DNA from: Longimicrobiales bacterium
GTDB taxonomy: Bacteria > Gemmatimonadota > Gemmatimonadetes > Longimicrobiales > Gaopeijiaceae
DNA: 64,000 nt
Direction: 5' to 3'
NCBI GenBank assembly: GCA_963664435.2
Contig: CAXXKM010000002.1
Coordinates: forward strand, 832,001 to 896,000
A program made the position numbers and the translations under genes. Position 1 is the stretch's first letter; each line of letters opens with the position of its first letter. The notes under the pieces are model-generated. The model did no database searches and was not told the origin of the DNA. It saw only the letters and a program-made list of their open reading frames with translations. This document shows positions 108 to 64,000 of this stretch, piece by piece.

Positions 108-127
108 CGTTCGATACCTCCGATTCG

Positions 128-268
128 GCAGACTGAGAATGGCACGAATCACGGCGAGGAATCGTCTAACTACTTACAGGGCTGCACGATCTGCGCTTTC
201 TGCCCTTGAAACGTGTCTCCTCCCGTCGTCCAGAAACGGCGGGTAAATCGCCTCGATTTGCGGGAATC
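128..268 (+). repeat. Distal end of element B (ATCACGGC motif, 15-bp box, GCGGGAATC arm-type sites)
   Basis: Aligns by eye with 62081-62222 and with the reverse complements of 10986-11126, 39097-39238 and about 45160-45300. Confidence 0.85.
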
Positions 269-404
269 GCATTCCGCCTCCGGCAGTGGCTGGGCGCAGG
301 TTCGCGAAGCCGACTGCCGCGGTCAATCGTCATCTACTTCGCCCTCTGGACTGGACGTGATCGTCCGGTCTTCCTCTGTCCTTCAACCCCTTCGGATCGT
401 GGAT

Positions 405-1150
405 TCAAGGAGATTCGGCTAGCGTGATCGCGTTTTGCATCGCCCACCCGCAGACCGTCCCCGTGAGCCGGGGGACCGGAGCAACGCCGCCGGCCGCATC
501 ATCGAGCGATATCCGGCTCTCCAGCTTGTTGGCCAAGTCGCATCGTCCTCCGCGGTCGTCCAATGACCACGTCAACGTACCGGAGACATCCGCCTCGATC
601 AGAATGCCCGCGTCGTAGGAAAGGGTGATCCGGATCGTTTGCGCCAAGCGGTCGCTGTCCATGAGGAAGGACACGTCGTCGTCGCTGAATACGCAGTCCC
701 TCGCGGTCAGCGTGCCCTCCAACTCGGCGGACAGCGTACCCTCCGCCAGCGTCAGCATCGCATCCCCCGTGAAGGAGGCTCGGCTGCCATGCGCGCAGGG
801 AATCTCGGCTCTCGCTGGTGACCGCCCCTTGGAAACCTTGAAGCTCGTATAGGGGCCAAGATGAAGGATCTCGCCGTGAGCCAGCAGGCGCCCGCCGTAC
901 AGCCCCCGCACCAAGCTTCCAGCGCCGCCGAAGCCTTGGCCGCCGTGATGACATACGCGGCCGTGCCGTCCGCGACCAGCACGCCGTCCCCGTGAACTGA
1001 AGCAAACGGGCTTCGCCGGTCGTGCCCCGCAGGATACCGGCCCGCACGTCCCAGGTTAGTCCCTCGTAGGACGCGAACCGCTCCGCGTCCGCCGCGCGCA
1101 CCAGTAGACTGGCGGAAGGCGATGTGACCGGAGGTGAAGGCGACGGCCAC
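405..1150 (-). pseudogene. Degraded hypothetical gene, coding-like segments in several frames
   Basis: ORFs 405-914, 752-1150 and 499-1242 each contain protein-like stretches; no family recognised. Confidence 0.3.
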
Positions 1151-1336
1151 TTCACCGGCCTCGTTAGGGTCCAGTGACGTTCGGAGACGTTCGGCTGGGT
1201 CGGAGACCCGTCAGGTCGCTCCGCCGGTGGCCTGGCGAACACCCCCGTTGCTGATCACACGGGGCTTCCTCATCTCAGGATGGCGCGACGAGATTCGGCG
1301 CACATTCTGCTTTCTGAAGGCAGGCTGACACTGCCG

Positions 1337-1364
1337 TTGACAGAGACACGGTTCCTTGTATACT
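1337..1364 (+). promoter_or_regulatory. Sigma70-type promoter
   Basis: TTGACA (1337-1342), 16-bp spacer, TATACT (1359-1364); RBS AAAGGAG follows at 1411-1417. Confidence 0.65.
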
Positions 1365-1423
1365 CCGACCGCTCGGGGAGAAAAACTCCCTGAGAGAACC
1401 TTCACAACCCAAAGGAGTTGCAC

Positions 1424-1636
1424 ATGTCTCAGGCCACATTCTCGTGGCGCGCCCGCCTGACCGCCATCGTTGCCGTCTTGGCGGTCTGCGTACTTCCGCT
1501 CGCGGCCCAAGAGATCGATGATTGCTTCCAAGATTGCCACGATCTGGGCATGCTCGCGTACGGCGACGATCAGGACTTGGACAAGGGTTCTGCGGTCTTC
1601 GAGGAGTGCATGGAGACCTTCTGCGGCGGCATGTAG
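1424..1636 (+). CDS. Small secreted four-cysteine acidic peptide
   Basis: Strong RBS; signal peptide ending PLAA-Q; mature part CFQDC...CMETFC. Confidence 0.75.
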   Translation: MSQATFSWRARLTAIVAVLAVCVLPLAAQEIDDCFQDCHDLGMLAYGDDQDLDKGSAVFEECMETFCGGM

Positions 1637-1647
1637 CCGCGCCCGCC

Positions 1648-2742
1648 GTGAGAACCTACAGATTGGCGGCGGTCGCTTTGGCGATCGCCGCCGCTGGCTG
1701 TTTGCGGGACCAGCCAGCGCCCTCCGAGGAGAGACTAGTCCCGGTTGCCTCCGCGCCTGTCCCGCTGAGTCGGGATAACGGTGTTGCCTTGACGTCGGCG
1801 CGGGAGGCGTGCGTGATCGACTCGTACAATTTCCGCGTTGTGTGCGTCACCCCTGACGAGCGCATCGGTGAGTTCGGAGGGAAGGGCGATGGCCCCGGCG
1901 AGTTCACTCGACCGGTTTGGCTCGGGAGAGTCGCGCTGGACCGCGTGGGCGTCGTTGACACTCGGCAGAATCGGCTAACGGTGTTCAAGACCGATGGCGA
2001 ATTGGTGTCGGACCTGTCGTTGCCTTCGTTGTTCTGGCCCCGGTCAGCCGGGCCGACCAGTCTTTTCGGCGAGGGCCTGCTCGGAGTGACTCCGGGAACC
2101 CAACCGGAAGAGGGAACGAGGCCGAGCGCTGAAACCGTGCTCGTAGAGGTGTCGCTTCAATCCGGCGAGGTACTTTGGCACCGGCGCGGTCTGGAAGAAA
2201 TCGCTACGACCGAATGCGGTAAGTTGGGGTCGGGGATACCAACGCCTAGCGGCGGCTACGTACTCAAGGCGTGCAAGCGGGAACTGGTGTTTCTGGAGGA
2301 TCGAGACGGCATGGCCGCCGCCGTGATTCAATCGCCGAATTACATGGTCGAGTTTCCAAACGAGCGCGACGTGGAGGCCTACCTTGAGGACATGGCCAGC
2401 ATGTTTGGCGGGTCCGCACCGGCATCGGCCATGGAGCCGCACGCAGCCGGATACCGAGAGGAGCCCAAGGCTTGGTTCCTGTTGGATGGACTGATCTTCG
2501 ACGACTTGGGCCGTTTATGGGTCGCCACGCATCGGGACCGCGACGCTTTTTCCTACTTCGACCTCTGGGTAGGCGTCGAGTATGCAGGGACGGTCCAGAT
2601 ACGTGACCGGCTGATCGGCTATGACATCCTGGGTTCGACCCTCGTCGCCTTGGTCGAGCGAACACCGGATCGAAACGGGATTGCTCAGCGGGCGATCGAC
2701 TGGTACGACATCGGCGCGGTCGAGGCCGGTCGTGAAGAGTAG
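1648..2742 (+). CDS. Lipoprotein, 6-bladed beta-propeller (NHL-like)
   Basis: Lipobox AAGC; FGGKGDGPGEF motif; FDDLGRLWV; GTG start at 1648 inferred. Confidence 0.8.
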   Translation: MRTYRLAAVALAIAAAGCLRDQPAPSEERLVPVASAPVPLSRDNGVALTSAREACVIDSYNFRVVCVTPDERIGEFGGKGDGPGEFTRPVWLGRVALDRVGVVDTRQNRLTVFKTDGELVSDLSLPSLFWPRSAGPTSLFGEGLLGVTPGTQPEEGTRPSAETVLVEVSLQSGEVLWHRRGLEEIATTECGKLGSGIPTPSGGYVLKACKRELVFLEDRDGMAAAVIQSPNYMVEFPNERDVEAYLEDMASMFGGSAPASAMEPHAAGYREEPKAWFLLDGLIFDDLGRLWVATHRDRDAFSYFDLWVGVEYAGTVQIRDRLIGYDILGSTLVALVERTPDRNGIAQRAIDWYDIGAVEAGREE

Positions 2743-2919
2743 GGTTCTTCACAAGCCGATGCCGATTCTCGTCCGGGGATCTTGAATTCGGCCAGTTTAT
2801 CCGCAACGCACAACACCCCACTCCAGCCCCGCAACCCTGAGCCCGTGTTAGAGTCAGGAGCAGCTTATTGGCCTCGCTGGGCTCGGCGGTTGTGGCTCAC
2901 CCGGATTCGCGTTTCCGCC

Positions 2920-3015
2920 GTGGTTCAAGCCGTGCTCTTCGACTCGATCATCGTGGTCACCGACCGCAAGATCCTGGACCGGCAGATCCGGAACACGATC
3001 AAGTAGTACGCGCAG
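2920..3015 (+). pseudogene. Fragment of a type I restriction enzyme R subunit
   Basis: FDSIIVVTDRKILDRQIRNTIK resembles the HsdR motif Ia region; followed by a stop codon. Confidence 0.5.
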
Positions 3016-3767
3016 GCCGATACCTTGCGGGGGTGTTTTTCCGCCCCGTTGGCGACGACCGCCGTCGGCTACTCGACGTTATTGGACCTCCTCATACGTT
3101 ATCGACCAATAGGAGATTCCGGGCGGGTTGACTTGCTGGCGGGTGGCTACTCAGCGTTCACGGCATGGAGACGCGGAAGCACCGATTCAGCACGAGGGTA
3201 GGCACTTCCCTCGGGGACCCCGACGCGCCGTCCCCGACGGCCTCGGTGATGAAGTCCCCGAACGTCTCGAACCTCTGGATGGACGGTAAGCGGGACGGAC
3301 ATCAAGGCGCGATTGGCGGCGCGTGGCTGGACCCCGATGCTGCAACGCGTTGCCTCGGCGCGACGTGGGAAATGGCCTATTCCCCACCCACTTGCACGAC
3401 TTGCCGACTCCATGTTCGCCTTCATGCCATGGAGATTGAGAGGAGGCGGTTCGCGGCGGTCGAGGGGAGGGTTCGGGCCGGATGTCATCCCCACGACGGA
3501 CTTTCGCGCCGTCACGGCGCGGACGCCCGAGCCTGGCTGGCGGTCACTCGCCCGCGGGGACGCGAGAAGGCGCTGAAGCCCTTTGGCTGGCTGGATCGCC
3601 GGGACAGCACTGCCCGGCATCCGGGGAGCGCCCGAGTCTTGCGGCATCCATGCCCGGAACCCTTGCCCGGCGCGGGCGCGGTGAGCCCGTGGAGGACGCC
3701 GACGCGGCGGGTTGAACCGGACCGTTCACGGGCGCGGCCCACGGGCTCGTTGGACGCTGCTATTTCA

Positions 3768-3840
3768 GACAAGCCAGCATACTCCTTGGGGCCACACTTC
3801 GCGTGTCCCCAGGAGAGGCTGGCGGGGGGCCTTGCCCCCT
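3768..3840 (-). other. oriT of element B (ColE1-like nic motif GCTGGCTT next to a hairpin)
   Basis: AAGCCAGC at 3771-3778 followed by the hairpin CTCCTTGGGG...CCCCAGGAG, just upstream of mobC. Confidence 0.6.
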
Positions 3841-3868
3841 GTGACCCCCGGACGGGCAACGGCGCGCC

Positions 3869-4207
3869 ATGAGCGCCCGACGCGCCGTTTGGGTGAAGGT
3901 TCGCGCCAGCGAGGCGGAGCGTGCCGAGTGGCACGCCAAGGCGCGTGCCGCGGGCCTCACGCTGTCGGATCTGGTGCGCCGGTCGGTGAGCCGGACGCGC
4001 ACATGGACCGTGGCGCACGCCGAGGTCGAGCGCGAGCGCGTCCAGCAAGTGGCGCGGATCGGGAACAACCTCAACCAGATCGCCCGCTGGGCGAACACCC
4101 ACCGGGGTGCCATCGAGGCGGTCGAGGTGATCGGCCACCTCGTCGCCATCAGGCGGGCGCTCGCGGCACTGTCCCCCGCCGAAGGTCCGGAGTCGGATGC
4201 TGATTAA
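3869..4207 (+). CDS. mobC: MobC/MbeC relaxosome accessory protein
   Basis: RHH-like N-terminus; ARIGNNLNQIAR motif; overlaps the relaxase start. Confidence 0.9.
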   Translation: MSARRAVWVKVRASEAERAEWHAKARAAGLTLSDLVRRSVSRTRTWTVAHAEVERERVQQVARIGNNLNQIARWANTHRGAIEAVEVIGHLVAIRRALAALSPAEGPESDAD

Positions 4208-5798
4208 GTTCCTGGCGCACGGGACCGGATCGGCCGGCAAGGCGGCTGGCTACCTCCTCGGCGAGCTGGACGCCGCCGGGAAGCCGCGCGAGGGCGTCGA
4301 GGTCCTTCGGGGCGATCCGAACCAGGTGGCCGCCGTAGCCGACACGCTGGCGTTCGAGCACAGGTACACCTCCGGCGTGATCGCATGGGCGCCGGAGGAC
4401 GAACCGGCCGACGCCGAGATCGAGGCGGTCGTGGACGCCTTCGAGGACACGGCCTGGGCGGGACTGGAGCGCGACCGGTACGCCTGGACCGCCGTGCTGC
4501 ACCGCGAGCGCGGCGGCGGCGCGCACGTCCACGTCCTCGCCGCGCGGTGCGACCTGGAGACCGGCCGGAGCCTCAACATCGCCCGTCCGGGCTGGGAGAA
4601 GACCTTCGGCCCGCTCCGGGACGCCTTCAATTCCGAACACGGCTGGGCTCGCCCGGACGATCCCGCACGGGCCAGGGTGCAGCAACCCGGCCACCGCGCC
4701 TACATCGAAGCGACCCGACTGCGGGCCGGACTACGGCTCGAATCCTCCCCCCGCGACCTGATCCGGGACTACCTGCTCCAGCGCGTCGAGCACGGCACGG
4801 CGCGGAACCGGGCCGATATCGTCGCCGCCCTTCGGGAGGCGGGGCTCGAAGTGCCGCGCCAAGGCAAGGACTACCTCACCGCGCTGGACCCCGAGACCGG
4901 CGACCGGTGGCGGCTGAAAGGAGAACTGTATGGAGAGAACTTCGACCGCGAACGATTTGACCGAGCGGCTGCGGAGGAGGCTGGAGAGCGAGAGACGGGA
5001 GATCGAGGAGTTGACCGCGAGCGAGCTCGAAAGGCTCGGCGAGAACTCGCGGCGCGCCGCGAGGAACGCGCTGCGTTCCATCGAGCGCGATACGGAGGAG
5101 GCGGCCGGGAGGATGCGCCAGCTGCTGGTCAAGGCGTGGCAACGGCCCCTGATCGTAGGCCTGAGCCTTTGGATCGGTTTCTTCGGCGGAAGCTGGGCGA
5201 CGATGCAGTGGTTGTCGAGGAGCATCCAGGACCGGATCGAGACCCGCGCCGAACTGGGCCGGGCCATCGAGGACGCCCGGCGGACACTGGCCCAGCTGGA
5301 GGAGGACACCTGGGGGCTCGTGTTCCGCGAGATCAAGGGCGAGCGGTTCGTGGTGGTGCCGGACGAGGTGCTGGCCGATCCGCCCTGGTGGAAGGTGGAC
5401 GGACACCTTCCGGCGTTGAAGCTGTTGAGAGAGTGAGGGAGCTGTATGAGCGAGTTGGAACGGCAGTTGACGGAGGCCTTGAAGAGGCTCTCCGCGCAGT
5501 ACGCGACGGAGCAGCGGCGGCACTCCGGGCAGGTCGAAGGCTTGAGGCAGCACGTCGAAGCCTTGCGGCAGCGCGTCGAGCGGCAAAGCGAGGAGAACGA
5601 CGCCTTGCGGCAGCACGTCGAGCGGCAGAGCGGGGAGAGCGAAGCCTTGCGGAGGCGAATCGAGTGGCTGAACGAGGACGTTACACGCTTAACCGAGTCG
5701 TACGGCGCGCTCGCCGCAACCTTACGATGATGGTCACGGCGATGCGCCTGCGCGGGCTGGGGCGCGATCGCGATCGCGATTACGGTCCGAGCCGCTGA
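4197..5798 (+). CDS. mbeA: Relaxase, ColE1 MbeA-like
   Basis: MLIKFLAHGTGSAGKAAGYLLGE, EVLRGDP, YTSGVIAW, HRERGGGAHVHVL, DLETGRSLN. Confidence 0.85.
   Translation: MLIKFLAHGTGSAGKAAGYLLGELDAAGKPREGVEVLRGDPNQVAAVADTLAFEHRYTSGVIAWAPEDEPADAEIEAVVDAFEDTAWAGLERDRYAWTAVLHRERGGGAHVHVLAARCDLETGRSLNIARPGWEKTFGPLRDAFNSEHGWARPDDPARARVQQPGHRAYIEATRLRAGLRLESSPRDLIRDYLLQRVEHGTARNRADIVAALREAGLEVPRQGKDYLTALDPETGDRWRLKGELYGENFDRERFDRAAAEEAGERETGDRGVDRERARKARRELAARREERAAFHRARYGGGGREDAPAAGQGVATAPDRRPEPLDRFLRRKLGDDAVVVEEHPGPDRDPRRTGPGHRGRPADTGPAGGGHLGARVPRDQGRAVRGGAGRGAGRSALVEGGRTPSGVEAVERVRELYERVGTAVDGGLEEALRAVRDGAAAALRAGRRLEAARRSLAAARRAAKRGERRLAAARRAAERGERSLAEANRVAERGRYTLNRVVRRARRNLTMMVTAMRLRGLGRDRDRDYGPSR
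4930..5436 (+). CDS. MbeB-like protein, overprinted within the relaxase gene
   Basis: Alternative frame inside mbeA; coiled coil plus a TM segment; conserved in the second copy (12904-13407). Confidence 0.75.
   Translation: MERTSTANDLTERLRRRLESERREIEELTASELERLGENSRRAARNALRSIERDTEEAAGRMRQLLVKAWQRPLIVGLSLWIGFFGGSWATMQWLSRSIQDRIETRAELGRAIEDARRTLAQLEEDTWGLVFREIKGERFVVVPDEVLADPPWWKVDGHLPALKLLRE
5446..5730 (+). CDS. MbeD/MobD-like protein, overprinted within the relaxase gene
   Basis: MSELERQLTEALKRLSAQY resembles the MbeD N-terminus; RBS GAGGGAG; internal ALRQHVERQS repeats. Confidence 0.75.
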   Translation: MSELERQLTEALKRLSAQYATEQRRHSGQVEGLRQHVEALRQRVERQSEENDALRQHVERQSGESEALRRRIEWLNEDVTRLTESYGALAATLR

Positions 5799-5881
5799 TG
5801 AGCGGGAAATCTGGCGCGGACGGCCTCCCGCAGCGAGCTTTGAGGCGCGCAGATCGTGCGGTCCATCGCGAGAGGAATCGA

Positions 5882-7099
5882 ATGATGGCACGCACGAAGC
5901 GGGACCGGCGCAGCTACAGCGCCGGCGAGTGGGGCCGGAACCGGGTGAGGGTGTTCGCCGATCCCAAGACCGGTCTCTACCAGATAGAGTGGCGAGAGAA
6001 CGGGCGAAGGCTCACCCGGTCCCTGAAACACCGGGACTGGTCGAGGGCCAAGCGTCAGGCGGACGAAGCCGCCGCAGGCCTCGCGATGTACGAGCTCAAC
6101 GGCAAAGCCGAAGCCGAATCCGAGCCGCTCACCCTGGAAGGGCTTTTTGAAATCTACGGTGAGGAGGTGGTCCCGACGAAGCACCGGCGGACCCAGCACC
6201 AGAACAGGGCCACGATGCGGATGTTTCTGGACTTCCTCGGCCGCGACCGAAGACCCGAGACGCTTTCCCGGCGCGACTGGGACCGGTTCATCCGGGAGCG
6301 GCGGGCAGGCAGGGTCGGACCCAGCGGCAGGCCCGCAGCCGACCGTACCATCGTGTGCGACCTGAAAGTCCTGCTCGCGATCCTAAACTGGGCCGCCAAG
6401 TCGAGAGATGAGCGGGGTCGGTTGCTGCTCGACTCCAACCCGCTGAGGGGACTCAGGGTGCCGAAGGTGAAGAACACCACCCGGGTCGTGCTCTCCGACG
6501 AGGAATACGAGGCGCTTCTGAGGGTCTCCGGACAGGTGGGTTGGCGCTTCCGTGTCGCCCTCGTGCTCGCGCACGAAACCGGGCACCGGATCGGAGCCAT
6601 CCGGAAGCTGAGGTGGACGGATATCGACCTCGAAGGCGGAGTCATCCGGTGGAGAGCCGAGCACGAGAAGACCGGATATGAGCACCGAACGCCCGTGACC
6701 GACGAGGCGACCTCCGCCTTGGAGGAGGCGCAGAGGCACGCTAGCGGGACCGGAGACGCCCCGGTTCTGCCCGCGCCGCGGGATCCGTCGACGTGCGTGA
6801 GCCGTACGCTGGTGGGCACTTGGTGGAAGACCGCCGAGAGGCGGGCGGGGTTGGAGCCCAAGCGCGGGAGAGGCTGGCACTCGCTCAGGCGGAAGTTCGC
6901 TTCAGACCTCATCGGGCTGCCCCTCAAGGTGCTTTGCGATCTCGGTGGCTGGAGGGAAGCCAAGACCGTCCTGCGCTGCTATCAGCACACCGACGACGTA
7001 CAACTCAGGACGGCTCTGGACAGCCGTCCCCGCAACGGTCGGCACCCGATCCAATCGGCGGGAACCGAACAGCGGGAATCGGATCACCGAATCCCGTAA
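5882..7099 (+). CDS. Tyrosine integrase of element B
   Basis: ETGHRIGAI (R), HSLRR, LGGW, LRCY (Y); RBS GAGG upstream of the ATG at 5882/5885. Confidence 0.92.
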   Translation: MMARTKRDRRSYSAGEWGRNRVRVFADPKTGLYQIEWRENGRRLTRSLKHRDWSRAKRQADEAAAGLAMYELNGKAEAESEPLTLEGLFEIYGEEVVPTKHRRTQHQNRATMRMFLDFLGRDRRPETLSRRDWDRFIRERRAGRVGPSGRPAADRTIVCDLKVLLAILNWAAKSRDERGRLLLDSNPLRGLRVPKVKNTTRVVLSDEEYEALLRVSGQVGWRFRVALVLAHETGHRIGAIRKLRWTDIDLEGGVIRWRAEHEKTGYEHRTPVTDEATSALEEAQRHASGTGDAPVLPAPRDPSTCVSRTLVGTWWKTAERRAGLEPKRGRGWHSLRRKFASDLIGLPLKVLCDLGGWREAKTVLRCYQHTDDVQLRTALDSRPRNGRHPIQSAGTEQRESDHRIP

Positions 7100-7140
7100 G
7101 TGACGCGCCCGCAACAGAATCGGCAATCAAGGATTTCTGT
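7051..7140 (+). repeat. Integrase-proximal end of element B
   Basis: CCAATCGGCGGGA...CAGCGGGAATC...CCGAATCCCGTAAG, then 40 bp to the core; same layout in reverse at 23267-23356. Confidence 0.85.
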
Positions 7141-7147
7141 CGATTCG

Positions 7148-7430
7148 ATGGACTGCACGATCTGCGCGTTTGAAACCTCGCGCAGGGCACGCCCGTCGTC
7201 CAGAGTTGCGGCCCGGTCGGCTCTGGCGCGGGCGCGCCACGGGGGCGTTGGTTTCTGCGGTTTGTAGAGGAGCCAGATGGGTTAACGCTTCACGTTAACC
7301 TCTGGCCGGGGGAGCATCCCCCGGACCCCCGAACGACATTCCGCGCGCCACCCAAAGGAAAGGCCGCCCGTCATGGTCCGTCCCCGGAAGCCCGAGGCCG
7401 AGCGCAGGACTCGCACGATCGGTGTGCGCG
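7148..7430 (+). pseudogene. Element A integrase leader, oriT-like inverted repeat and truncated mobC (ATG 7373)
   Basis: Collinear copy of about 24544-24822; similarity ends after MVRPRKPEAERRTRTIGVR. Confidence 0.8.
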
Positions 7431-7800
7431 AGGAGCAGCCTCCATGCGCTTGAGATCTTGACCTCTGATCGGCCGGGGTCGGTGGCGTACCGCGCGTGCA
7501 CATCGACATCGGGGGGCATGTGCACGGAATCACCGCGTCCATGTGCGCGGGCAGGGGCTCCGCATATCGCTGCCCGCGTTGCGGTTGTACCACGGCCGCA
7601 CGAACGGCGGTGCCGTTCCAGAGTGTGCGGCCGTGGCGGGAGCGACCCCGCCCTTCGGGTGCCTGGTACGGCACGGCGACGGCCGGGATGTGCACTTCCA
7701 TCCCAACCTCGCCCGGGGTCGCTCCCGATCCATCAGTCCTTGGCAGGAAGGCTAGTCGGTCACCGGAGACGGTCGCGGCCCGAAGCCGAAGGCGACTGCG

Positions 7801-8000
7801 GTGGCCAACACCATCGGGCACGGCGACCACATCGAGATCCGGGGCTTCGGCACCTTCAAGGTGCGGCACCGCAAGGCCCGCACGGCCCGCAACCCGAGAA
7901 CCGGCGAACCGGTTCGGGTCCGGCCCGCGATGTGCCGGTCTTCAATCCGTCGAGGCACCTCCGCAGCCGGGTGGAGCGAGGCTCGGTCCATGTCGGCGAC
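7801..8000 (+). pseudogene. HU/IHF-family DNA-binding protein, 5'-truncated and frameshifted
   Basis: IEIRGFGTFKVRHRKARTARNPRTGE, with VPVFNPSRHLRSRV in another frame. Confidence 0.8.
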
Positions 8001-8147
8001 GAGTCCGGGACGAAGCAAGGCGGGTGTTGGGGAGTGGCAGTGGTCGAAGAGGCGGCGGCGAGCTAAGCTAGCTTAGCTTGATGGTGCCGGATGTGTGGAA
8101 AGCTGACCGTGCACTTGATCGTTCAATTTCGCTACGGGAGCGCTTCG

Positions 8148-8396
8148 ATGGCTGTAACACACTACGATGCGGGGAACGGACCCGTTTGCCAGTACAGGCA
8201 GAGCGCGAAGCAATGGAGCAAGGATGCCAGCAAGGTGAATTGCATCGACTGCCGCCGCCGATCGGGCTTCCCGCTCTTGGTTCATTGGATTTCGCCGCAG
8301 AGGAACATCGCTTGCGGCATGTGGTTCGTGAGGGAAGCGTTCGTGGACAGTGAGAAGCGCGCCGTCACCTGTCTTCGCTGCCGCAAGGCCATGTGA
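8148..8396 (+). CDS. Small protein with two H...C...CxxC zinc-finger-like repeats
   Basis: THYDAGNGPVC...VNCIDC and VHWISPQRNIAC...VTCLRC. Confidence 0.6.
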   Translation: MAVTHYDAGNGPVCQYRQSAKQWSKDASKVNCIDCRRRSGFPLLVHWISPQRNIACGMWFVREAFVDSEKRAVTCLRCRKAM

Positions 8397-8410
8397 AAGG
8401 AGAGCTCGAA

Positions 8411-8824
8411 ATGAGGAAGGGCAGGTTTGGACTCGGCGTCGCACTGGCGCTGGGGGTCGTGCCGTGGTTGGCGGGGTGCCAAGACGAAGAGGCGGCGGCA
8501 CGCCGCGGCTTCTTGCAGCAGTCCAGCGCGGCGCTCGCTCCATCTATCGATCCAGCGATCAGCGAAGCATTCTGGGACTGGCAATACTGTCGCATCATGG
8601 GTGAGCACTACTATGGGGATGCGATTCTCCAAGTGGCTGCTGATCCGGAATGGGCGGATCGGTACATGAGAGAGTTGCTCTCGAGGCAGATCCTGGAATC
8701 GGAGCTGGCTCTCTCGGGGCTTGTGGCTGAGGAGGCTCGACCTCATTGTCCTCTGAATGATGCTTTGGAAGCGAAGCTGGACTCGCTGCATGCTCTGATC
8801 GAAGCGAGACCTGATCAGCAGTAA
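8411..8824 (+). CDS. Hypothetical lipoprotein
   Basis: RBS AAGGAG; signal peptide with LAGC lipobox. Confidence 0.7.
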   Translation: MRKGRFGLGVALALGVVPWLAGCQDEEAAARRGFLQQSSAALAPSIDPAISEAFWDWQYCRIMGEHYYGDAILQVAADPEWADRYMRELLSRQILESELALSGLVAEEARPHCPLNDALEAKLDSLHALIEARPDQQ

Positions 8825-9160
8825 GCAACGTTGAACATCGCGGTCTGGCAAGGGGCGGCTCCGCCCCCCTTAGACCTCATGGGTTTCCGCGCCACTGTTC
8901 GGCGCGGTGGAGGGCGGGGGCCGCCTCCGGGAACCTCCGTCCGGTCCGCCCGGATCGCTGTCCGCCGACGGCCTGGCCGGACAAGAAGCGACCTTCCCCG
9001 ACCAGCGGGTCTCGCTCCGCCGGGTCGAGCGACTTGGGCCGGGCCGCTTGGTGGGCCCGTCGCGTTGCCGCCGGGACGACGCCGCGCGGCGGGCCGAAAC
9101 GCACTCGGGGCCGACCGCGGCCCGCGAACTCCGAGCGTCAGCGAGGGCGTTGTTTGGGGA

Positions 9161-9244
9161 TCGAAGGGGCAAGCCCCTCGCCAGCCCCAAGTGTATTACT
9201 TTGGGTAGGCTGGCTTAACCACCTTAGCGTGGCTAAGCCAGCCC
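9161..9244 (+). other. Orphan ColE1-like oriT
   Basis: CCCCTCGCCAGCCCC-hairpin-GGGTAGGCTGGCTTAAC matches the oriT at about 14568-14610; second inverted copy TAAGCCAGCC at 9234-9243. Confidence 0.65.
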
Positions 9245-9568
9245 GGCGGTGCCGCCGGGAAACGCTCCTCCGGGCACCGCCCGGAAGAGTGCCCACCGGG
9301 CGAGCCCGGTGTCCTTCGGCGGCCTGCTTCGAGAGCCGTCCGCCAGCTGCTCCCTAAGCTGTTGTGGCAGCGGGTAGCGCGCTCGCGGATGTAGACCGCC
9401 CCGTTGGCCCGCGGCGGGAGAGGAGATCAGGCCGCATGGTCCTCCGTCGGGCGTGGAGGCCGACAGTCTGGAGACTCCCGCGAATCGAGGGGGCCGGACT
9501 TGCGCCCGCCAGACCCGCAACCGGACCGGCCAACGTCATGGCTGGGACAGCGGGCGGGTTACGGCCAT

Positions 9569-10039
9569 CTATCGGTACCAGTGAACGTTGAGGCTCAAGT
9601 CAACCCAAGCGATGGGAACCATCGGCTCAGAAAAGTCGCGATCCTCCGCTATCAGCATCGCCGGGTCCCACTCCACCCCCGTGTCGTACCACCACGCGCA
9701 CAGCGTGGTCACCATCGTACCGCGCACCAGCGCGTCGTTGCCCCGCAACCTACGGGCATACTCCGGACTGACCGCGATTCCCCGCACCACTGTTTCGCTC
9801 GAGAACAGTGCTCGGTCCATGTAAGGACCGGGGCGGGGGTTGCCGAACATCGACGGATCGCCGTCCTGTTTCCAGAACATTTCCGAGTCCGCCGCGCTGT
9901 CGTACGTCGATACCATGCCGCGGTTGCACGCCATGTTGCGCCACTCCCGGAGCGCGGGACTGCCGACCCTCAACTCCTGAGCCGCCGCGCCGCGCGCGAA
10001 CGCGAGCGCGGCCACGATGATTGCCAGTCTCACAGCCAT
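9569..10039 (-). CDS. Hypothetical secreted protein
   Basis: RBS GGAGG; signal peptide ending AAA-Q. Confidence 0.6.
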   Translation of the reverse strand: MAVRLAIIVAALAFARGAAAQELRVGSPALREWRNMACNRGMVSTYDSAADSEMFWKQDGDPSMFGNPRPGPYMDRALFSSETVVRGIAVSPEYARRLRGNDALVRGTMVTTLCAWWYDTGVEWDPAMLIAEDRDFSEPMVPIAWVDLSLNVHWYR

Positions 10040-10059
10040 GCGAACCTCCCACGTCGATT

Positions 10060-10265
10060 CTGAGCGTGTCCCCCATGAAGTTGCACCGCGATCTCGGGAT
10101 ATCGCCGTCCGCCGCGTGGTTCCTCCTCCACCGCATCGGCGGAGGCCTCGCGGACGGGCGGATGACGTTCACCGGCCCCATCAAGGTAGATGAGAGGATT
10201 TCGGCGGGTTGCGCAAGAACATGCCGAAGCACAAGCGCGAGAAGCTAACCGGGCGGGGGCCGAAC
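10060..10265 (+). pseudogene. IS1595-family transposase remnant
   Basis: SPMKLHRDLGISPSAAWFLLHRI...FTGPIKVDE, then GLRKNMPKHKREKLTGRG after a frameshift. Confidence 0.75.
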
Positions 10266-10985
10266 GTTGACGCTGCTCTTCGGCGCGCGCAGCTTGCGCT
10301 TCACGGCGCTCCGCCTCTTGCGCCTGGGCCTCGGAGTTCGGCAGCAGTGATCCGGTGTCTCGGGCATGTCCGAGCGTTCGCCAAGCGACGGAGGACCGAG
10401 ATTGCAAGTACCGAGACGGCCCCCCAGCCAATACATCCAATGCGTTCCGGTTTCGGGGCTGACATGGGCTCCTCCGGGGGGCGTGATGGTGCCGGGCCCG
10501 TCACCATCACCAAGACGGAGGAACCGGCAGAGGGCTGGACCTGCCCCGCTTTCACGGACAGTTGGTTCTTGGGGTTGATGGTGTCTGAGGTGGTTTGCCT
10601 CCCCCGCCGGAGAGGGGCGGCGGAAATCGGACCCTCGTTCGGATGACGGGTCTCCCGGCGTTCGAACGAGGGTGGGCAAGCGAAGCGCGGCAGCCCGCCG
10701 CCAGGTCGGCACGCGAGCCGGCCGCCACGAGATCACGGGTCCGCAGCACGCCGGGATGCGGGCACGAAGCCTATCGCGCAGGTGCGGGAACGTGGTGAGG
10801 ACGATCCAACGCGTCATTGCCACGGAGGCGGAGGGCGTGCACCTTCGCCTTGCAAAACCGTCGCAGCCTCGGCTGGCGGCGGTTCCCCCCGTCTTCCCAT
10901 CGGGAGCCAGTCCCGATGGGAAGACGGGGGTTATGTTCCTACTGGGCCTGATCAACGAGAATAGGACCGCCTCCGTGAGTGAGCC

Positions 10986-11126
10986 GATTCCCGCCAATCG
11001 AACCCGTTTTCCCGCTGTCGCGGCACGATCCAGCGGAGTCCAGTCCAACGGCAGAAAACGCAGATCGTGCAGTCCTGTATGACTTTACGTGATCTCTTGC
11101 CGGGATTCGGACCTCGTGTGCTCCGC
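10986..11126 (-). repeat. Distal end of element A
   Basis: GATTCCCGC 10986-10994; box 11058-11072; GCCGGGAT 11099-11106; the 20-bp spacer starts GCGGAG in element orientation. Confidence 0.8.
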
Positions 11127-11133
11127 CGTTACG

Positions 11134-11470
11134 TCAGGGTTGTCGCATTGTTGCCATCCAGGAACGGGCGCAGGCTCATCGGGTCCGAGCTCAGCTGCCG
11201 GGCGTAGGCCGCCGTGGCGATGAGCCATCGGGTCGCGCCGGTTGCGTACCCGTCGTGATCGTAGCGGAAGAAGTCGTCCGGGCCCGCCGGCCCCGAACGA
11301 CGCAGCGCCGCGTTAAGCAGCCTGGTGGTCTCCTCGTGGCCATGGTGTGACTCGGTCACGCGCGCGTGAGAGAAGGAGGCCTCCCACTCGGTGGCGCCAC
11401 CGGCTCCCGATGTCCATCTCCGCGTCATCCGGCCCGACTAGGAGTCGGGGAAGCCGGCGACAGCCCTCCT
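11134..11470 (-). pseudogene. Internal fragment of a putative outer-membrane beta-barrel protein
   Basis: GFPDS*SGRMTRRW...EWEASFSHARVTESHHGHEETTRLLNAALR; amphipathic strand pattern, in-frame stop. Confidence 0.45.
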
Positions 11471-11477
11471 CCGGCGA

Positions 11478-12437
11478 TCTCTCGGCCTTCTTCCACCAGT
11501 CCCGCGCCAGCGAGCGGCTCATGCACGCGAAGGAATCCTTCGGCGCGGCCAGCAGGGGCGCGTCCCCAATCCCGGGGTTGTGCCTCCGCGCTTCCTCCAA
11601 GGCTGCGAGCGCCTTGGAGGTGACCGGCGTCCGGTGCTCGTAACCGGTCTTCTCGTGCTCTCCCCGCCACCGGATGGTCCGGCCATCGAGGTCGATGTCG
11701 GCCCAACGAAGCTGCCGAATGGCACCGATTCGGTGCCCGGTCTCGTGGGCGAGCACCAAGGCCACTCGGAACCGCCAGTTCACCTGGGCGGACACTCCGA
11801 GCAACGCTTCATACTCTGTCTGGGTGAGCACCACCCGCCTCGGATTCTTCTCCTTTGGCAGCTTGAGGCCCCGGAGTGGGTTGGATTCGAGGAGGAGCCG
11901 TCCCTCCTCGTCCCTCGATTTCGCGGCCCAATTGAGAATCGCGAGTAGCAGCCTCAGATCGTATTCGATCGTCCGTTCGGACACGGGTCTGCGGCTACCG
12001 CCGGCCTTTCCCACGCGCCGCGCCCGGATGAAGCGGTCCCAGTCGCGTTGCGAAAGGGTCTCGGCCTTCCGGTGCCTCCCGAAGAACCGAAGGAACCTCC
12101 TCATCATGGCCCGGTCGTGGTTCTGCGACCGCCTGCTCTTCGTGGGGGTGACCTCTTCACCGTAGATTTCAAACAGCGTTTCCAGGGTGAGGGACACCGA
12201 CGCGGCTTTCGCCGTGTCCGTGGTCACGGGCTCGGCGAGTCCGGCGGCGATCTTATCCGCCTGCCGCTTGGCCCGGTTCCAGTTACGGTGTTTCAGCGAC
12301 CGGGTGAGCCTGCGTCCGTTCTCGCGCCACTCGACCTGGATGATGCCGGTTCTGGGATCGGTAAAGACCCGGACCCGATTCCGGCCCCATTCGCCAGCGC
12401 TGTACGAGCGCCGACTTCGTTTTGTGCGTGCCATCAT
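11478..12437 (-). pseudogene. Tyrosine integrase of element C, C-terminally truncated
   Basis: Aligns with the other integrases up to WWKKAER; lacks HSLRR and the catalytic Tyr. Confidence 0.85.
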
Positions 12438-12571
12438 TCGATTCCTCTCGTGATGGACCGCACGATCTGCGCGGTTGAAACTTCGCTTCGGCAAGGCGTC
12501 TCCGCCAGACGGGCGGTCGGCGGCGCGCCGGGCGCTGCGGCGTTGGCGTGGCAAGCGACTGGACGCCATGG

Positions 12572-14140: not shown

Positions 14141-14469
14141 CGCGCTCCGGGCTCTCGAAGCGAGCCAGCTCGCCGAGCGCGCGCTCGACGGCGACCAGAC
14201 GGGCGATCACCTCGACGGCTTCGGCCGACCCCTTGTGGGTGTTCGCCCAGCGAGCGATCTGGTTGAGGTTGTTGCCGATGCGGCCGACCTCCCGGGTGCG
14301 CTCGCGCTCGACCTCGGCCGCGCGGGCCGTCCAGGTCCGCGTACGGGCCATGGCTCGCCGGATGAGCGCTGACAGGGGCACGCCCGCGGACTGCGGCCTT
14401 GGACCGCCAGTCGGCGAACTCGGTCGCCGATACGCGGGCGGTGACGACGGCGGTGCGGCGCTCAGGCAT
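14130..14469 (-). pseudogene. mobC: mobC, frameshifted
   Basis: MPERRTAVVTARVSATEFADWRSKAA and LSALIRRAMAR...IGNNLNQIAR lie in different frames; shift near 14385. Confidence 0.75.
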
Positions 14470-18458: not shown

Positions 18459-18850
18459 GGACTCGCTTCCGTTCCTCACGATGGGTAGGGTGACCGATGG
18501 ACCAGCGTCCTATCGCCAAGAGTGGTCCGAAAGCTAGGGGCCACCGTAGGGACAGAGACGGGATGGCCGCCCAAGTATGACCTCTGCCGAAGTGGTGGGC
18601 AATCGCCGGTCGACGCCCCCTCGACATCCATGCTGCTCGCGGCGCCGCTGCCGTAGCGGCCTGCCCTCACCCTACGTCGAAACGCGGGATCAGCGGGCGG
18701 AGGGGGTGGCGGTTGGCAACAGGGTCGGTTCGTCCCAGGCCCTTGGCCCGGACACTAGATGGGATACCTTTAGCGTCGGCGTGAAGGCCGACGCAGTACA
18801 TGCTGACCTTTCAAGGACGGAGGCCGACGCGCGTCGGCACGGAGAACACA

Positions 18851-20658: not shown

Positions 20659-20661
20659 GTG

Positions 20662-20870: not shown

Positions 20871-21080
20871 CCTGCAAATCAAGCAGGGATCTCCAAGAAT
20901 GGAAGAGACAAGCGACCCGGGGCGGAGCGTGTCGGGATGTGTGCATCCCAACCTCTAGCCAGGCTCGAGCTGGACCCTCTCTGCCTCGGTCGGGGCCTTG
21001 GCAAGCCGGGGTGTGCGAGCACTAATCACGCCCGTGGATCCGCCACACGCGGCCGATGGACCGACAAGGAGGCTGTCGGA

Positions 21081-23266: not shown

Positions 23267-23362
23267 ACATGAGCACTTTGAGTCACATATCGTTGTGAGC
23301 GTGTAGCTTACGGGATTCGGGGGTCAGATTCCCGCTGATTGACTCCCGCCGATTGGTTTGGG

Positions 23363-45159: not shown

Positions 45160-45300
45160 GATTGCTCGCTAAATGACCCGATTTCCGGCCCTTTCGGTCC
45201 GGCAACCCCTGACACGCCCCAACGGCAAGAAGCGCAGATCGTGCAGTCCCAGTTAGATTTATGAGATATCTTGCCGTGATTTGCATCCCTGTTGGAGCGA
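45160..45300 (-). repeat. Distal IME end (assigned to element C)
   Basis: Box 45232-45246; GCCGTGAT 45273-45280; arm-type sites degenerate. Confidence 0.75.
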
Positions 45301-45377
45301 TTTGGGAGCAGGAGCAGGAAAAGGAGTGCCGGCGCGGCGACGGCGCGGGCGGTCGCCACGGGTCGGTGCATGTGCAT
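45301..45377 (-). pseudogene. Signal-peptide stub of a gene cut by the IME end
   Basis: RBS GAGG; MHMHRPVATARAVAAPALLFLLLLP runs directly into the element end. Confidence 0.55.
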
Positions 45378-60812: not shown

Positions 60813-61229
60813 ATAGTCTCCGCGTGTCGGCCGCTCCGTCTGTCCTCCCTGCTCGCGGGATCCAACGGCCTCAAGCTACGCTGACCAATGGAGATAGTCG
60901 TTGCTTGGGCACCTGGGGGTTGCCTGTCGGATTCCTCTTCCGGGGTCGAAGGCATCACACCGGTTACTACTTGAAGTACACGCGGGAGGGTTCCCCGACG
61001 CGCTTTCACGCCGAACCTCGGGGTGCCTTACGGCAACCCCATCGTGCGGCGAACGTGCTCACGTCATCGGCACCGTTCTTGACCAAACCGAGGGCGTGGA
61101 AATCGGACTGCTCCGGGCCCTCGGTAGTACCGTTCGCGCGGACGAGGATCAATGGCGGTCAGCATGAGGCGAATCTAGGGCGGCCCACCGAGGCTTTCAA
61201 GGCGCGGGACCGTCAACGCCGCCGCGACC

Positions 61230-62080
61230 CTACCCCCTCCTCCAGAACGGCGCGATGAAGTGTCCCTTGCGCCCGGCCTTCACCAGGAACCAGACCCCGG
61301 TCCCCATCCCCAGCGCCAGCGCGAAGATCGACGCCTCCACCCCGAACTCCCCGCCCGAAAGCAGCGTGGGGCCGCTCAGCTGCGACTCCAGCAGGCCGTC
61401 CACCGTGATCCCCGACATGCGCACGCCGAAGATGCCGCCCTGGGTGAAGTTCCAGGCGAAGTGGATGCCGACCGCGAGCCAGAGCCGCCGGGTGAGGACG
61501 TAGGCGGCGCCCAGCAGCACACCGGCCTCCATGGCGATCGCGAACGAGCTGAACAGCGTCGCGTTGGGGTTCATTATGTGCGCGAACCCGAACAGCAGCG
61601 AGGTGAGCGCCAGGGCGATCCAGGTGCCCAGGCTCTCCTCGACGATCCGGAACAGCACCCCGCGGAAGAGGACCTCCTCCACGTACCCGGAGATGATGGC
61701 CATGGCGAACGCCGGCATAATCACGCTCACGGGGTTCGACCCGGTGACCTCGTAGTATCCCAGCACCGCGATGATGGTGATGCTCGCAGCCAGCAGGCCC
61801 GCACCGACCGCAATCCCGGCACCCGTCTCGCGCACCGCCCCCTTCCCGGCCAGCTCACTGGCCCGGCGCCGCTCCACCAGGCGCACGTAGCCGATGTATG
61901 CGAAGTGAACCGCAATCACCAGCGGGATGACGTACAGGAGGGTGTCCCTGCGCAGCGGGCCGGCGCGCAGACCGCCCAGCACGCCCCCGAGGACCGCCTG
62001 GACCACGACCGTGGCGGCCAGGATGGCCAGCGTTGCCAGAACGATCCGGGTGAGCCCGAACTGGAGGATGCGGTGACCCA
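61230..62080 (-). CDS. CPBP (CAAX/Abi) intramembrane metalloprotease; native start replaced by the IME end
   Basis: EEVLFRG, FGFAH, HFAWN; frame stays open into the element end up to GTG 62105. Confidence 0.88.
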
Positions 62081-64000
62081 GCGGATTGGAGATAGCTGAA
62101 ATCACGGCGGGAGATCGTCTAAAGTCATACGGGACTGCACGATCTGCGCTTTCCGTCGTTGAGCTTCATTCGAACGCGTCGTTCCCAATTGGCCGGATTC
62201 ACGGGGTCGATTTGCGGGAGTCCGGCGGGTTGTTTCGACACCATCCAACGGCCTCTCGGGCGGGATACATGGTCGGCTTCAGAACACAAGATCGACTCCG
62301 AGTCTGAGGCCGAGGCCCTGGGGTTGTCCGGGCATGAGCGTTCGCGAGCCTTCGGCACCGATTCTGAGCGTCCGGTTGACGCGGTATCCGGTGCCGAGGA
62401 CCAACGAGCGGGCTTGTGCGCCGGTCGAGAGTCGCGTGTAGCCGTCGAGCGCGCCGCCCGTGCGCGAGTCCTTGAGGGCGTACCCGGCTTCGGCGTCGAG
62501 CCTCCATGGCCGCCCGTCGTGTCCCGCCGCCGGAGCCATGCCCTGGAACGTGCGTCCGTCCATGAGTCCGTGGATGCCGACTTGGTCATGCCCGTGGACG
62601 GGGCTGATCGCGAGCCTGAACCCTTCGCCGCGTGTACCGGGATCGAACGCGAGCCGGAGCGCGGCGCCCCATTCGCGGTGGCCCTCGGACCCGAGGGCGA
62701 GCCTGCCACGCAGGTCGAGGTCGAGTCCGCGGCCGGCATAGCCGATCGAGGCTCCGGTCTCGGCGCCACCGCCCGTGTCGGCGTCGCCCGCGTCGTAGCG
62801 GGCTCCGGCCTGGGTGGCGAGCTTAAGGCCACCGGCGGTCCATGACGCTTCGAGGAGCGCGCGTGCGCGCGATGCCGAGCCCTCGCGGTCGCCTTCTGCG
62901 GCGCGCATGCCGACGGTGAACGCGTCGCCGGTGAGCGCGAGGCCGAACGCGCCGCTCCGCGCGAGCGGCACCCTGACGCCGCCGGAGAGCATGCGGAGGG
63001 TGGCGCCGGAGTCGCCGCCCCGGTTCTCGTCGTGCACGTCCCCGCTTCCGTATCCGGCCATGGCCCAGAGCCCGATCCCCGGCGAGAGCCGGAGGAACAG
63101 GTAGGGGTGCACGCTGTTCATGGCGTGGCCGAGCGAGCCGTCCGCGGAGCGGCGCGCGTAGTCGAGTTCGCCGTCGCTGCGCATGAGGGACACGCCGATG
63201 AGTGCGGAGGATCCGATGCGTGCGTCGGCCCCGACGCTGAGCGCGCGAAGGCCGCCGTCGTATCTGGTGCCGGGCTCGCCGCGGAACGATTGTGCCGAGC
63301 CCTCGGCCCAGAGGCCGAACCGTGTCCGTGTTCCGGCCGCTTCCTGGCCGAGTCCGGTCGCGAACGAGACGCTCGGCAGCAGTCGCCGTGCGGCCTCGCG
63401 CGCGGTGGGGAGTTCGAGCGATTCGGAGCGGCGGGCCATGTCGGCGGGTGAGGACACGCCGAGCGGCAAGCCGGAGAGCGAGGCGAGGGTGCCGGCTGCG
63501 CGGCCCACCCATTCGGCCGCGGATCCGGGCGCGGCGGTGCCGGAGCCGCCCCGCTCCGGCCGCATGACGGCGTCGAAGCGTCCGCCGACCGCTTGCCGCG
63601 CGCCTTCGGCCACGGCGCGCCCGAACACGGCGAGCCCGACATCGAACGCCTCGTCGTGAAGCGCTCCGTCGTCGTGCGCCGCGATGTCGAGGGTGGCGGA
63701 CGCGACCGTTCCCGTGCTCACGGCCTCGGGCAGGGTGCCGAGCCCGAGCGCGAGGCGACCGGGCGCGGCCCCGGCCGGTATGTCGAGCGTGAGCGTGACG
63801 AGCGAATCTCCGGGCTCGAAGACGACCGGATCCGCGACGAGGAGAACACCGGCATCGGCGTCGAACGGCTCTTCGTCCATGCGCACCGCCGTGACGGGCA
63901 CGGCCACGAGCCGGTCGGCAGCCGGGCTGATCCTGAGCGTGATCCCGGTGCCGGGTCCGCCCGCGACCGCCGTGTACGCGGTCTCGACGTACTCGACCGC
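62074..64000 (+). mobile_element. IME E, distal end and start of cargo (continues off the window)
   Basis: GCGGAT 62081; ATCACGGC 62101; box 62135-62149; GCGGGAGTC 62214-62222. Confidence 0.7.
62279..64000 (-). CDS. Autotransporter-domain outer-membrane protein, C-terminal part
   Basis: Amphipathic beta-strands (LWAEGS, LSVGAD, VHPY, LDAEAGY); terminal Phe; ORF appears to start beyond the window. Confidence 0.8.
   Translation of the reverse strand, partial: AVEYVETAYTAVAGGPGTGITLRISPAADRLVAVPVTAVRMDEEPFDADAGVLLVADPVVFEPGDSLVTLTLDIPAGAAPGRLALGLGTLPEAVSTGTVASATLDIAAHDDGALHDEAFDVGLAVFGRAVAEGARQAVGGRFDAVMRPERGGSGTAAPGSAAEWVGRAAGTLASLSGLPLGVSSPADMARRSESLELPTAREAARRLLPSVSFATGLGQEAAGTRTRFGLWAEGSAQSFRGEPGTRYDGGLRALSVGADARIGSSALIGVSLMRSDGELDYARRSADGSLGHAMNSVHPYLFLRLSPGIGLWAMAGYGSGDVHDENRGGDSGATLRMLSGGVRVPLARSGAFGLALTGDAFTVGMRAAEGDREGSASRARALLEASWTAGGLKLATQAGARYDAGDADTGGGAETGASIGYAGRGLDLDLRGRLALGSEGHREWGAALRLAFDPGTRGEGFRLAISPVHGHDQVGIHGLMDGRTFQGMAPAAGHDGRPWRLDAEAGYALKDSRTGGALDGYTRLSTGAQARSLVLGTGYRVNRTLRIGAEGSRTLMPGQPQGLGLRLGVDLVF

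Follow-up and report, generated by a model that had tools for sequence, protein, structure and literature searches.

How can closely related integrases place their elements at unrelated sites in one chromosome and still leave an identical short repeat on either side of each? The question is raised by a 64,000-bp stretch of DNA from a Longimicrobiales bacterium (the window), which corresponds to positions 832001-896000 of contig C2 in the source genome (G000; 4.51 Mb, 68% G+C, three contigs, C1 to C3) and holds a stack of related elements, here called A, B, C, D and F. Positions given without a contig are those of the window. An initial annotation, made from the sequence alone, had described a family with ends of fixed geometry and a different 7-bp crossover core in each element, and had taken this for a departure from known integrase mechanics. 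Our analysis indicates that these are probably a lineage-restricted family of integrative elements whose movement depends on a tyrosine integrase of the lambda type (heterobivalent), with exchange over a 7-bp overlap as that annotation proposed.

Identical 7-mers lie at fixed distances from both element ends

Element B (128-7140, + strand; 7,013 bp), which is nested in A and was delimited by its end profiles and the pairing of its ends, is flanked by exact copies of CGATTCG at 121-127 and 7141-7147 (+). Element D (23267-39238, - strand; 15,972 bp) is flanked by CTACGCG on the + strand, which is CGCGTAG on the element strand, at 23260-23266 and 39239-39245. At the integrase ends, CCGAATCCCGTAAG (7087-7100, +; 23307-23320, -) stands exactly 40 bp from each core, and at the distal ends ATCACGGC (148-155, +; 39211-39218, -) stands exactly 20 bp from it, as had been observed before. 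The window has two exact copies of CCGAATCCCGTAAG and three matches with at most two mismatches, where 0.32 are expected; further copies of ATCACGGC occur at 45273 (-) and 62101 (+). Four of the five distal ends start with GC(G/A)GA next to the core. The repeat said to recur at both ends, GCGGGAATC, does so in B and D and is also present at the distal end of A; five of its six exact copies in the window lie at element ends.

The same spacing had been used to predict the cores of the three other elements. For A, the + strand reads CGTTACG at 11127-11133, and its partner CGTAACG lies just outside the integrase-end boundary of A at C2:830854; for F, the partner of TGACCCA (62074-62080, +) lies just outside the integrase-end boundary at C2:917102. 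Since both belong to the matched pairs described below, two of the three predictions are confirmed by sequence beyond the window. The predicted core of C, TCCCAAA on the element strand (45301-45307, -), has no partner because the integrase end of C has been lost. The closest relative of the C integrase (95.5% identical over 336 aa) belongs to an element in a tRNA-Pro gene with TCCCAAA on both sides.

Iterated nhmmer profiles of the two ends of B and D served to locate further ends, and the 20/40-bp ruler gave their 7-mer positions; integrase ends were accepted at scores of at least 30 and distal ends at scores of at least 40. G000 contains 29 integrase ends and 45 distal ends by this search, and about 29 integrase paralogues, roughly 65-85% identical, by tblastn. 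Twenty-one pairs carry identical 7-mers at offset 0/0; 18 of these are colinear within 70 kb and three span the end of C1 and the end of C2, in the nested order expected if these ends adjoin. In four additional pairs (three tRNA sites and C2:285863/315775) the 7-mers agree once the projection is moved by 1 nt, and C3:18938 matches C1:12768 across another contig junction. We found no clear partner pair with unequal 7-mers in G000. As a control on the offsets, we considered the 34 colinear end combinations within 70 kb: 18 match at (0,0), whereas none of the rest of the 288 offset combinations gives more than eight matches, and the nearest runners-up are diagonal shifts of 1-4 nt. The repeat is exactly 7 bp long in 8 of the 21 pairs, is never shorter and reaches 20 bp in one pair.

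Matching 7-mers at the predicted offsets are also found in relatives. From G005, a complete genome of another species of the genus, a sample of 30 distal-end and 30 integrase loci yielded 36 integrase ends and 31 distal ends, with 18 colinear pairs having identical 7-mers. Every resolved pair in G000 and G005 has the same 7-mer on both sides, as the initial annotation had it. Among 80 further related loci there are nine colinear end combinations: the 7-mers are identical in five and agree after a 1-nt shift in a sixth, while a seventh involves a second, farther distal end (the other two are weighed below).

The matched 7-mers also touch on the assembly. They join three nested elements across C1:1570014-1572719 and C2:1086106-1099798, and they suggest that the end of C1 adjoins the end of C2 and the start of C1 that of C3, the assembly having broken inside these repeats. 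At C3:710-907 a distal end comes immediately after an integrase end, resembling an element attachment site (attP) or a tandem junction; TAAG and ATCACGGC are 64 bp apart there, not 67, which at the start of a contig may be an assembly effect. Distal ends are in surplus over integrase ends in G000 (45 versus 29). Five distal ends of the same orientation lie within 17 kb behind a single integrase end (C3:1185380-1202465), an arrangement that looks like a tandem accumulation of islands whose integrase modules were lost.

Architecture of the attachment sites

An ungapped consensus anchored on the core (26 integrase ends, 41 distal ends) gives an attP of about 230 bp per element, split at integration. 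The P arm, at the integrase end and beyond the integrase stop codon, has two arm-type repeats GCGGGA(A/G)TC at -83 to -61, followed by ATC(C)CGTAAG at -50 to -41, CAAC..CA..AAGAT at -38 to -20 and a terminal TG(C/T). The P' arm, at the distal end, starts with GC(G/A)GA and continues with AATCACGGC at +20, then ATC..TAA, a strongly conserved box GGACTGCACGATCTGC at +52 that together with the adjoining TTCTTGCC spans +52 to +78, and GCGGGAAA-like blocks, the P' arm-type repeats, at +112 to +139. Arm-type repeats, which are putative binding sites, are present on both arms of attP and distant from the core. In B, the P' arm (128-270, +) comprises a GCAGA core-type site, ATCACGGC, the box at 179-194 and the arm-type repeat GCGGGAATC at 260-268, and the P arm (7058-7140, +) comprises two arm-type repeats, CCGAATCCCGTAAG and a terminal TGT.

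The 16-base box GGACTGCACGATCTGC is the most conserved block of the elements and has a degenerate copy in the integrase-end arm. Its nine copies in the window (179-194, 5849-5864, 7150-7165, 11060-11075, 12455-12470, 24546-24561, 39172-39187, 45234-45249 and 62132-62147) fall into five that lie about 52 bp inside distal ends and four that are inverted and lie about 20 bp upstream of integrase start codons. One of the latter, GGACCGCACGATCTGC (5849-5864, -), is 20 bp upstream of the B integrase.

When attP and the chromosomal attachment site (attB) were reconstructed for the 21 pairs, the two were identical over the 7-mer in 21 of 21, and outside it agreed at background level except for G at -2 (17/21) and C at +2 (16/21). 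Logos of 97 and 66 de-duplicated ends agree with this: the chromosomal arms carry less than 0.5 bit per position, except for C at +2 (76/97). The overlap itself is weakly biased, with a pyrimidine at position 1 in 93/97 and a purine at position 7 in 81/97.

The integrase

The B integrase (5885-7099, +, from its MARTKR start) matches PF00589 (1.7e-18), which covers the catalytic domain alone. PHROGs places it in the generic phrog_1 'integrase' (1.4e-46), NCBIfam gives a Xer-like match below cut-off, and a sequence search of solved structures returned one weak Xer match. Six residues are invariant in 26 sequences (R235, K262, H332, R335, W356 and Y366) and, by our reading, fit the catalytic set of tyrosine recombinases (R-K-H-R-H/W-Y). 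The structure model places strands at 21-25, 32-38 and 41-46 and a helix at 52-67 ahead of core-binding and catalytic domains, with a 10-residue block mean predicted local distance difference test score (pLDDT) of 73-79 over residues 21-60. Full-length lambda Int chains align with it over 376-380 columns, versus about 290-320 for Xer and Cre, at a template modelling (TM) score of about 0.3. The model is consistent with residues 21-67 being an arm-binding domain, but is not proof of it.

Overlaps, lineages and targets

The initial annotation held that each element has a core of its own. This did not survive the wider comparison: cores are common within lineages. Among 109 integrase ends there are 57 different 7-mers, and in G000 CGTAACG occurs at three integrase ends and four distal ends, while TGGACAC and TTACCGT occur at two loci each. 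Where P arms are similar (at most 6/30 differences) and flanks unrelated, the 7-mer is common to 46 of 80 pairs and is 1-2 bases off in 22; where arms are dissimilar, it is common to 46 of 5354 pairs. TGGATCA is found in six elements from different records, no two of which have related flanks. The claim that closely related integrases go with different 7-mers holds, the closest such pairs being 93% (CGAAGAA/CGAAGCG) and 84.6% (TGCGGTA/CGCGTAG) identical; CGAAGAA and CGAAGCG are each matched at both of their own junctions. By these sequence comparisons the core is a heritable, drifting property of each lineage, neither unique to an element nor a random duplication.

Targets include coding genes, such as the type IIG restriction gene split by D, and sibling elements, in agreement with the earlier description. 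That they are non-tRNA sites is true of A, B, D and F, since we found no tRNA gene in the window, and is not true of some other members. In a tRNA-Pro gene (C3:41072-41145) and a tRNA-Val gene (C3:1152266-1152340), the crossover lies in the anticodon loop and the element restores the gene; the tRNA-Ile anticodon loop also appears, by reading of the sequence, to be used in relatives. At the tRNA-Val gene (region C3:1131978-1202465) two members stand head to head, one of which contributes the 3' half through its integrase-end arm and the second the 5' half, with the displaced original halves at the distal ends. In the Islander survey, carriers of 5' tRNA halves are the rarer kind, 159 versus 3760 (PMC4383910).

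Several lineages have favoured sites of other kinds. The palindrome CCCTGA-CGT(A/T)ACG-TCAGGG is the landing site of one lineage. The CGATTCG lineage always lies between the integrase start and the box of a sibling; B, between the start codon of the A integrase (107, minus strand) and the box at 7150-7165, is a case in point. The CGAAGNN lineage splits a sibling integrase at codon 55 (two sites in G000, three in G005), where integrase fragments begin exactly at the junction, and the TGTCCGC lineage has one conserved flank in 4/4 ends. The landing-site palindrome, 19 bases long (CCCTGACGT(A/T)ACGTCAGGG), has 16 copies in G000 within three mismatches (for example at C1:368135, C2:315771 and C3:1457565), and some of these copies are occupied.

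Unoccupied sites and excision

Deleting D in silico with one 7-mer kept gives an uninterrupted 953-aa type IIG reading frame, while keeping no copy or both breaks the frame after 466 or 440 codons. Unoccupied B-type sites with a single CGATTCG are found upstream of the D integrase (24537-24551, +, where the 7-mer is followed by ATGGACTG of the box) and upstream of at least seven other sibling integrases in relatives. Empty sites thus hold one copy of the 7-mer.

The window stretch is present in runs labelled sponge metagenome. In contigs of four public runs compared with the 20-kb A+B locus (C2:830301-850300), a joint that skips exactly B plus one 7-mer was seen in 4/4 runs (locus 1820 to 8841, with 7 letters fitting both sides). 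We rejected this joint as a B-less allele, since its shorter side has just 23-25 letters and the same 50-nt sequence stands unoccupied upstream of the integrases of D and other siblings. Contigs identical to the unique part of B have 4-10 times the word depth of contigs unique to A/C in three of the four runs and about equal depth in the fourth; contig depth is not a copy number, so that a difference in depth between B and the adjoining sequence cannot be interpreted as one, and the excess is no more than a hint that B also occurs elsewhere in those communities.

Mechanism and alternatives

We propose that the integrase would cut the two strands 7 bp apart in attP and in attB, and that strand exchange would need identical overlaps in the two sites. 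Such a requirement would leave the same 7-mer at both junctions at fixed offsets. The geometry of the ends, the identity over 7 bp, the single copy in empty sites and the tie between a 7-mer and the element's own arm are what we observe. Because identical 7-mers on both sides are required by the lambda-type mechanism, the mechanism is not new, and the supposed departure from known integrase mechanics falls away: an identical 7-bp attP/attB overlap is standard for heterobivalent tyrosine integrases (bioRxiv 10.1101/2023.11.06.565760), and fixed spacing of arm motifs is equally ordinary (PMC10111431). What is unusual is the family, the breadth of its overlap diversification, the near absence of requirements in the attB arms, and the lineages that hunt siblings.

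The attB would, on this mechanism, be recognized mainly through overlap identity together with G at -2 and C at +2, and a change in an element's overlap would re-aim it. Such re-aiming would account for the diversity of overlaps, the high copy number per genome and the insertion of elements into their siblings. It leads to a further proposal, which we put forward tentatively as a possibility: the 7-bp overlap is the true address of a naturally reprogrammable integrase, for which almost any 7-mer with G at -2 and C at +2 serves, a change of the attP overlap alone suffices to re-aim the element, and this property has been used to spawn lineages that hunt relatives. If so, the lineages that split a sibling integrase at codon 55, or sever it from its upstream box, would be examples, and the mobility of an outer element would depend on the inner one leaving.

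Alternatively, each lineage's protein might recognize an attB of its own, so that the 7-mer is a crossover block and not an address. Support for such classical fixed sites comes from the lineages with long targets: 18/18 CGTWACG integrase ends abut TCAGGG/TTAGGG-type half-palindromes, 5/5 CGATTCG ends abut the sibling box, the 4/4 TGTCCGC ends have one 25-nt flank in common, and the anticodon stems of tRNA-Pro, tRNA-Val and (by reading of the sequence) tRNA-Ile are used; the B' arms of attB, moreover, have C at +2 in 76/97 and G at +4 in 54/97. The constancy of these long targets also weighs against an address confined to the overlap, and implies that protein recognition of the attB arms matters at least in those lineages. 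The fixed-site account stops short, however, at TGGATCA (six unrelated flanks) and TGCGGTA (three flank types among four ends), whose targets have only the 7-mer and 1-3 bases in common; the B arm of attB stays below 0.5 bit at every position, and integrases that are 93% identical use overlaps differing at 2/7, each matched on both sides. We conclude that it holds in part, for lineages with long conserved targets, and leaves the lineages with unrelated flanks unexplained; as a general account it is unlikely. Elements such as Tn916 and CTnDOT also use a tyrosine integrase, with a crossover region of 6-7 bp, and insert at many places in a genome; their flanking coupling sequences are normally non-identical. 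Were the 7-mers here coupling sequences from a previous site, carried through by tolerance of heterologous overlaps, one heterologous round could yield the related elements that are 1-2 bases apart in 22 of 80 similar-arm pairs, and locus L078 may be a mismatched pair. This would predict unequal sides after replication, yet 21 pairs in G000, 18 in G005 and five at other loci are identical, as are the junction 7-mers of all resolved pairs, and a given arm is found with one and the same 7-mer at loci that are unrelated. We consider this account very improbable. Short direct repeats of fixed length at many insertion sites per genome would also suit target-site duplication by the staggered cuts of a transposase, with ends that have no core of their own. 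The conserved module is, however, a tyrosine integrase with arm-type repeats; no conserved transposase is present (none in B or D, and in the whole window just the IS110-family gene that C contains), and independent insertions of one lineage carry the same 7-mer, unlike arbitrary-target duplications. The recurrence of the 7-mer with the arm and the lack of a conserved transposase exclude duplication of this type, to which we assign next to no probability.

Some results count against a lambda-type integrase exchanging over a 7-bp overlap. The N-terminal domain of the integrase is not recognized by Pfam, which gives no arm-domain match; the structure model is weak, with a mean pLDDT of 60, and fold searches reach TM scores of about 0.3. 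In G000, 4/30 integrase ends and about 20 distal ends have no partner. Among the related loci, the L039 combination does not match, and L078 (3605-11208) differs at 2/7 (TGCGTGG/TGCGCAG), which may reflect a past integration event between unequal overlaps or may mean that the ends are not true partners. The circle junction of B, which would be direct evidence of excision, was not seen among 15 of 46 joints, and no excisionase was found: Pfam on 14 small open reading frames (ORFs) of B gave nothing, and when the ORFs within 2 kb of the 45 distal ends, on their inner side, were compared all against all, no conserved ORF emerged beside them, only spurious translations of the conserved arm.

Organization of the window

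By its gene content B is predicted to be an integrative mobilizable element, with an integrase, an MbeA-like relaxase and a MobC/NikA-like protein. The relaxase accessory gene of the MobC/NikA type (3869-4207, +) matches PF21983 (3.5e-14) and PF05713 (2.7e-09); the relaxase gene (4197-5798, +) matches NF047848 over residues 1-495 (8.2e-24, below the curated cut-off) and PF03432 (1.2e-4, also below cut-off). Beyond these three we recognized no further product in the 7 kb of B. Roughly a third of family members carry MobC and an MbeA-like relaxase, which would make those elements mobilizable. D has no relaxase, and G000 has 11 relaxase matches in 10 places versus about 29 integrases; most family members, D included, are therefore not integrative mobilizable elements.

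Element A as a whole is 12,273 bp long including B (C2:830854-843126). Its integrase gene starts in the window (1-107, -, MARTKR at 107) and continues beyond it; the remainder of A (7148-11126, -) contains the box upstream of its integrase (7150-7165) and the distal arm (11032-11126). The distal core (11127-11133, -) lies within the palindrome AACCCTGA-CGTAACG-TTAGGGTT. Element F starts at 62081 (+), runs to the end of the window at 64000 and beyond it, and spans 23,022 bp in all (C2:894081-917102).

Element C (11313-45300, -) is decayed and about 34 kb long. Its integrase (11313-12569) is truncated past residue 363 of the ORF, which there enters unrelated sequence (11134-11478) with a paralogue near C2:821200-821700; the palindrome targeted by A lies inside that unrelated sequence. 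We looked for an integrase-end arm of C and found none. The distal end at 45300 we assign to the C integrase on the strength of its orientation and the 95.5% identity to the integrase of the tRNA-Pro element; the distal arm is at 45206-45300, and the flank of the core, CTCCTGC, mimics the anticodon stem of tRNA-Pro. C further carries a relaxase (12572-14140) and a MobC gene (14130-14468), a GmrSD-like gene (15991-18627), an NYN gene (18800-19477), the IS110-family transposase (19657-20946) and an HNH gene (42236-43036). Just beyond its distal end lies a reverse transcriptase that matches the DRT4 defence family (45867-47738, -; PADLOC Drt4, 1.6e-120).

D splits the type IIG (MmeI-like) restriction-methylase gene of C into a 5' part (21986-23266, +), which ends in the core copy at 23260-23266, and a 3' part (39239-40826, +), which begins with the core copy at 39239-39245. 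In addition to its integrase (23363-24523, -, from the MARTKR start), D carries an Hma (helicase-methylase-ATPase) defence system made up of HmaA (28235-31540), HmaB (31553-34867) and HmaC (35761-39072); the system is complete (1.8e-170, 3.6e-112 and 1.4e-72, respectively). Since insertion of D inactivates the type IIG gene of its host element, one defence island has knocked out the restriction enzyme of another.

Distribution

Within the genus, 17 of the 18 other genomes have matches to the integrase, as many as 39 in a single genome, and one further genus of the family has it too; altogether about 320 matches are spread over 22 genomes. The other genera of the family gave no integrase matches, and elsewhere in the order 3 of 16 genomes had one much weaker match each. 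By these searches the family is confined to one genus of Longimicrobiales (Gemmatimonadota) and a neighbour. The records with related sequences come from metagenome-assembled genomes, for the most part under the titles Longimicrobiales or Gemmatimonadota; a few short contigs have other labels. Literature searches that covered integrative mobilizable elements, overlap regions, the choice of targets and sites in anticodon loops gave no description of the family, and the word integrase is absent from one paper on the ecology of Palauibacterales/Gemmatimonadota.

Comparison with known systems

The family offers a large natural data set on the retargeting of lambda-type integrases, in which the same attP architecture recurs in dozens of lineages with differing overlaps, and it suggests that 7 bp of DNA carried by the element, rather than the protein, can largely decide the target. 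If assays confirm this, it would be a candidate family for overlap-programmed insertion of large DNA. It also accounts for about thirty related, mutually nested islands in one 4.5-Mb genome, and for assembly breaks inside these elements. Many of the islands carry anti-phage systems (Hma, type IIG, type IV restriction).

In architecture the family parallels the lambda/HK022 type: arm-type repeats stand on both arms at a fixed distance, the core sites are short and inverted, and all att sites have an identical 7-bp overlap. The integrase of that type has three domains, with which the weak model of the integrase here is consistent. The present family differs in that its attB arms are almost unconstrained, dozens of overlaps occur at 67-93% protein identity, a genome may have up to 39 integrase matches, and no excisionase was identified. 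In its overlap behaviour it can be set beside phage mv4, with no relatedness of the proteins implied. According to the mv4 report, overlap identity is mandatory, nearly any 7-bp sequence works if the sites match, and degenerate core-binding sites surround the 7-bp strand-exchange region (bioRxiv 10.1101/2023.11.06.565760), the same behaviour that we propose here. However, mv4 is a single phage whose one natural site is in tRNA-Ser, and its flexibility was shown in vitro, whereas here the diversification is natural and large.

In layout the family resembles the integrase clade of helper-embedded phage-inducible chromosomal islands, which repeatedly took new targets inside other mobile elements and has a doubled arm motif 81 +/- 2 bp upstream and 132 +/- 2 bp downstream of the attP centre (PMC10111431). 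The arm repeats here are placed similarly, at about -83/-69 and +112/+132. Our elements belong to a different phylum, are not phage satellites and have as targets sibling integrase genes and the box that precedes them, as well as tRNA loops, ordinary genes and a palindromic repeat. Finally, like the anticodon-centred islands of the Islander survey (PMC4383910), some members lie in the 7-nt loop of tRNA-Pro or tRNA-Val and restore the gene from the P arm. Unlike those islands, most members of this family, including all of those in the window, lie outside tRNA genes, and carriers of 5' halves and of 3' halves both occur.

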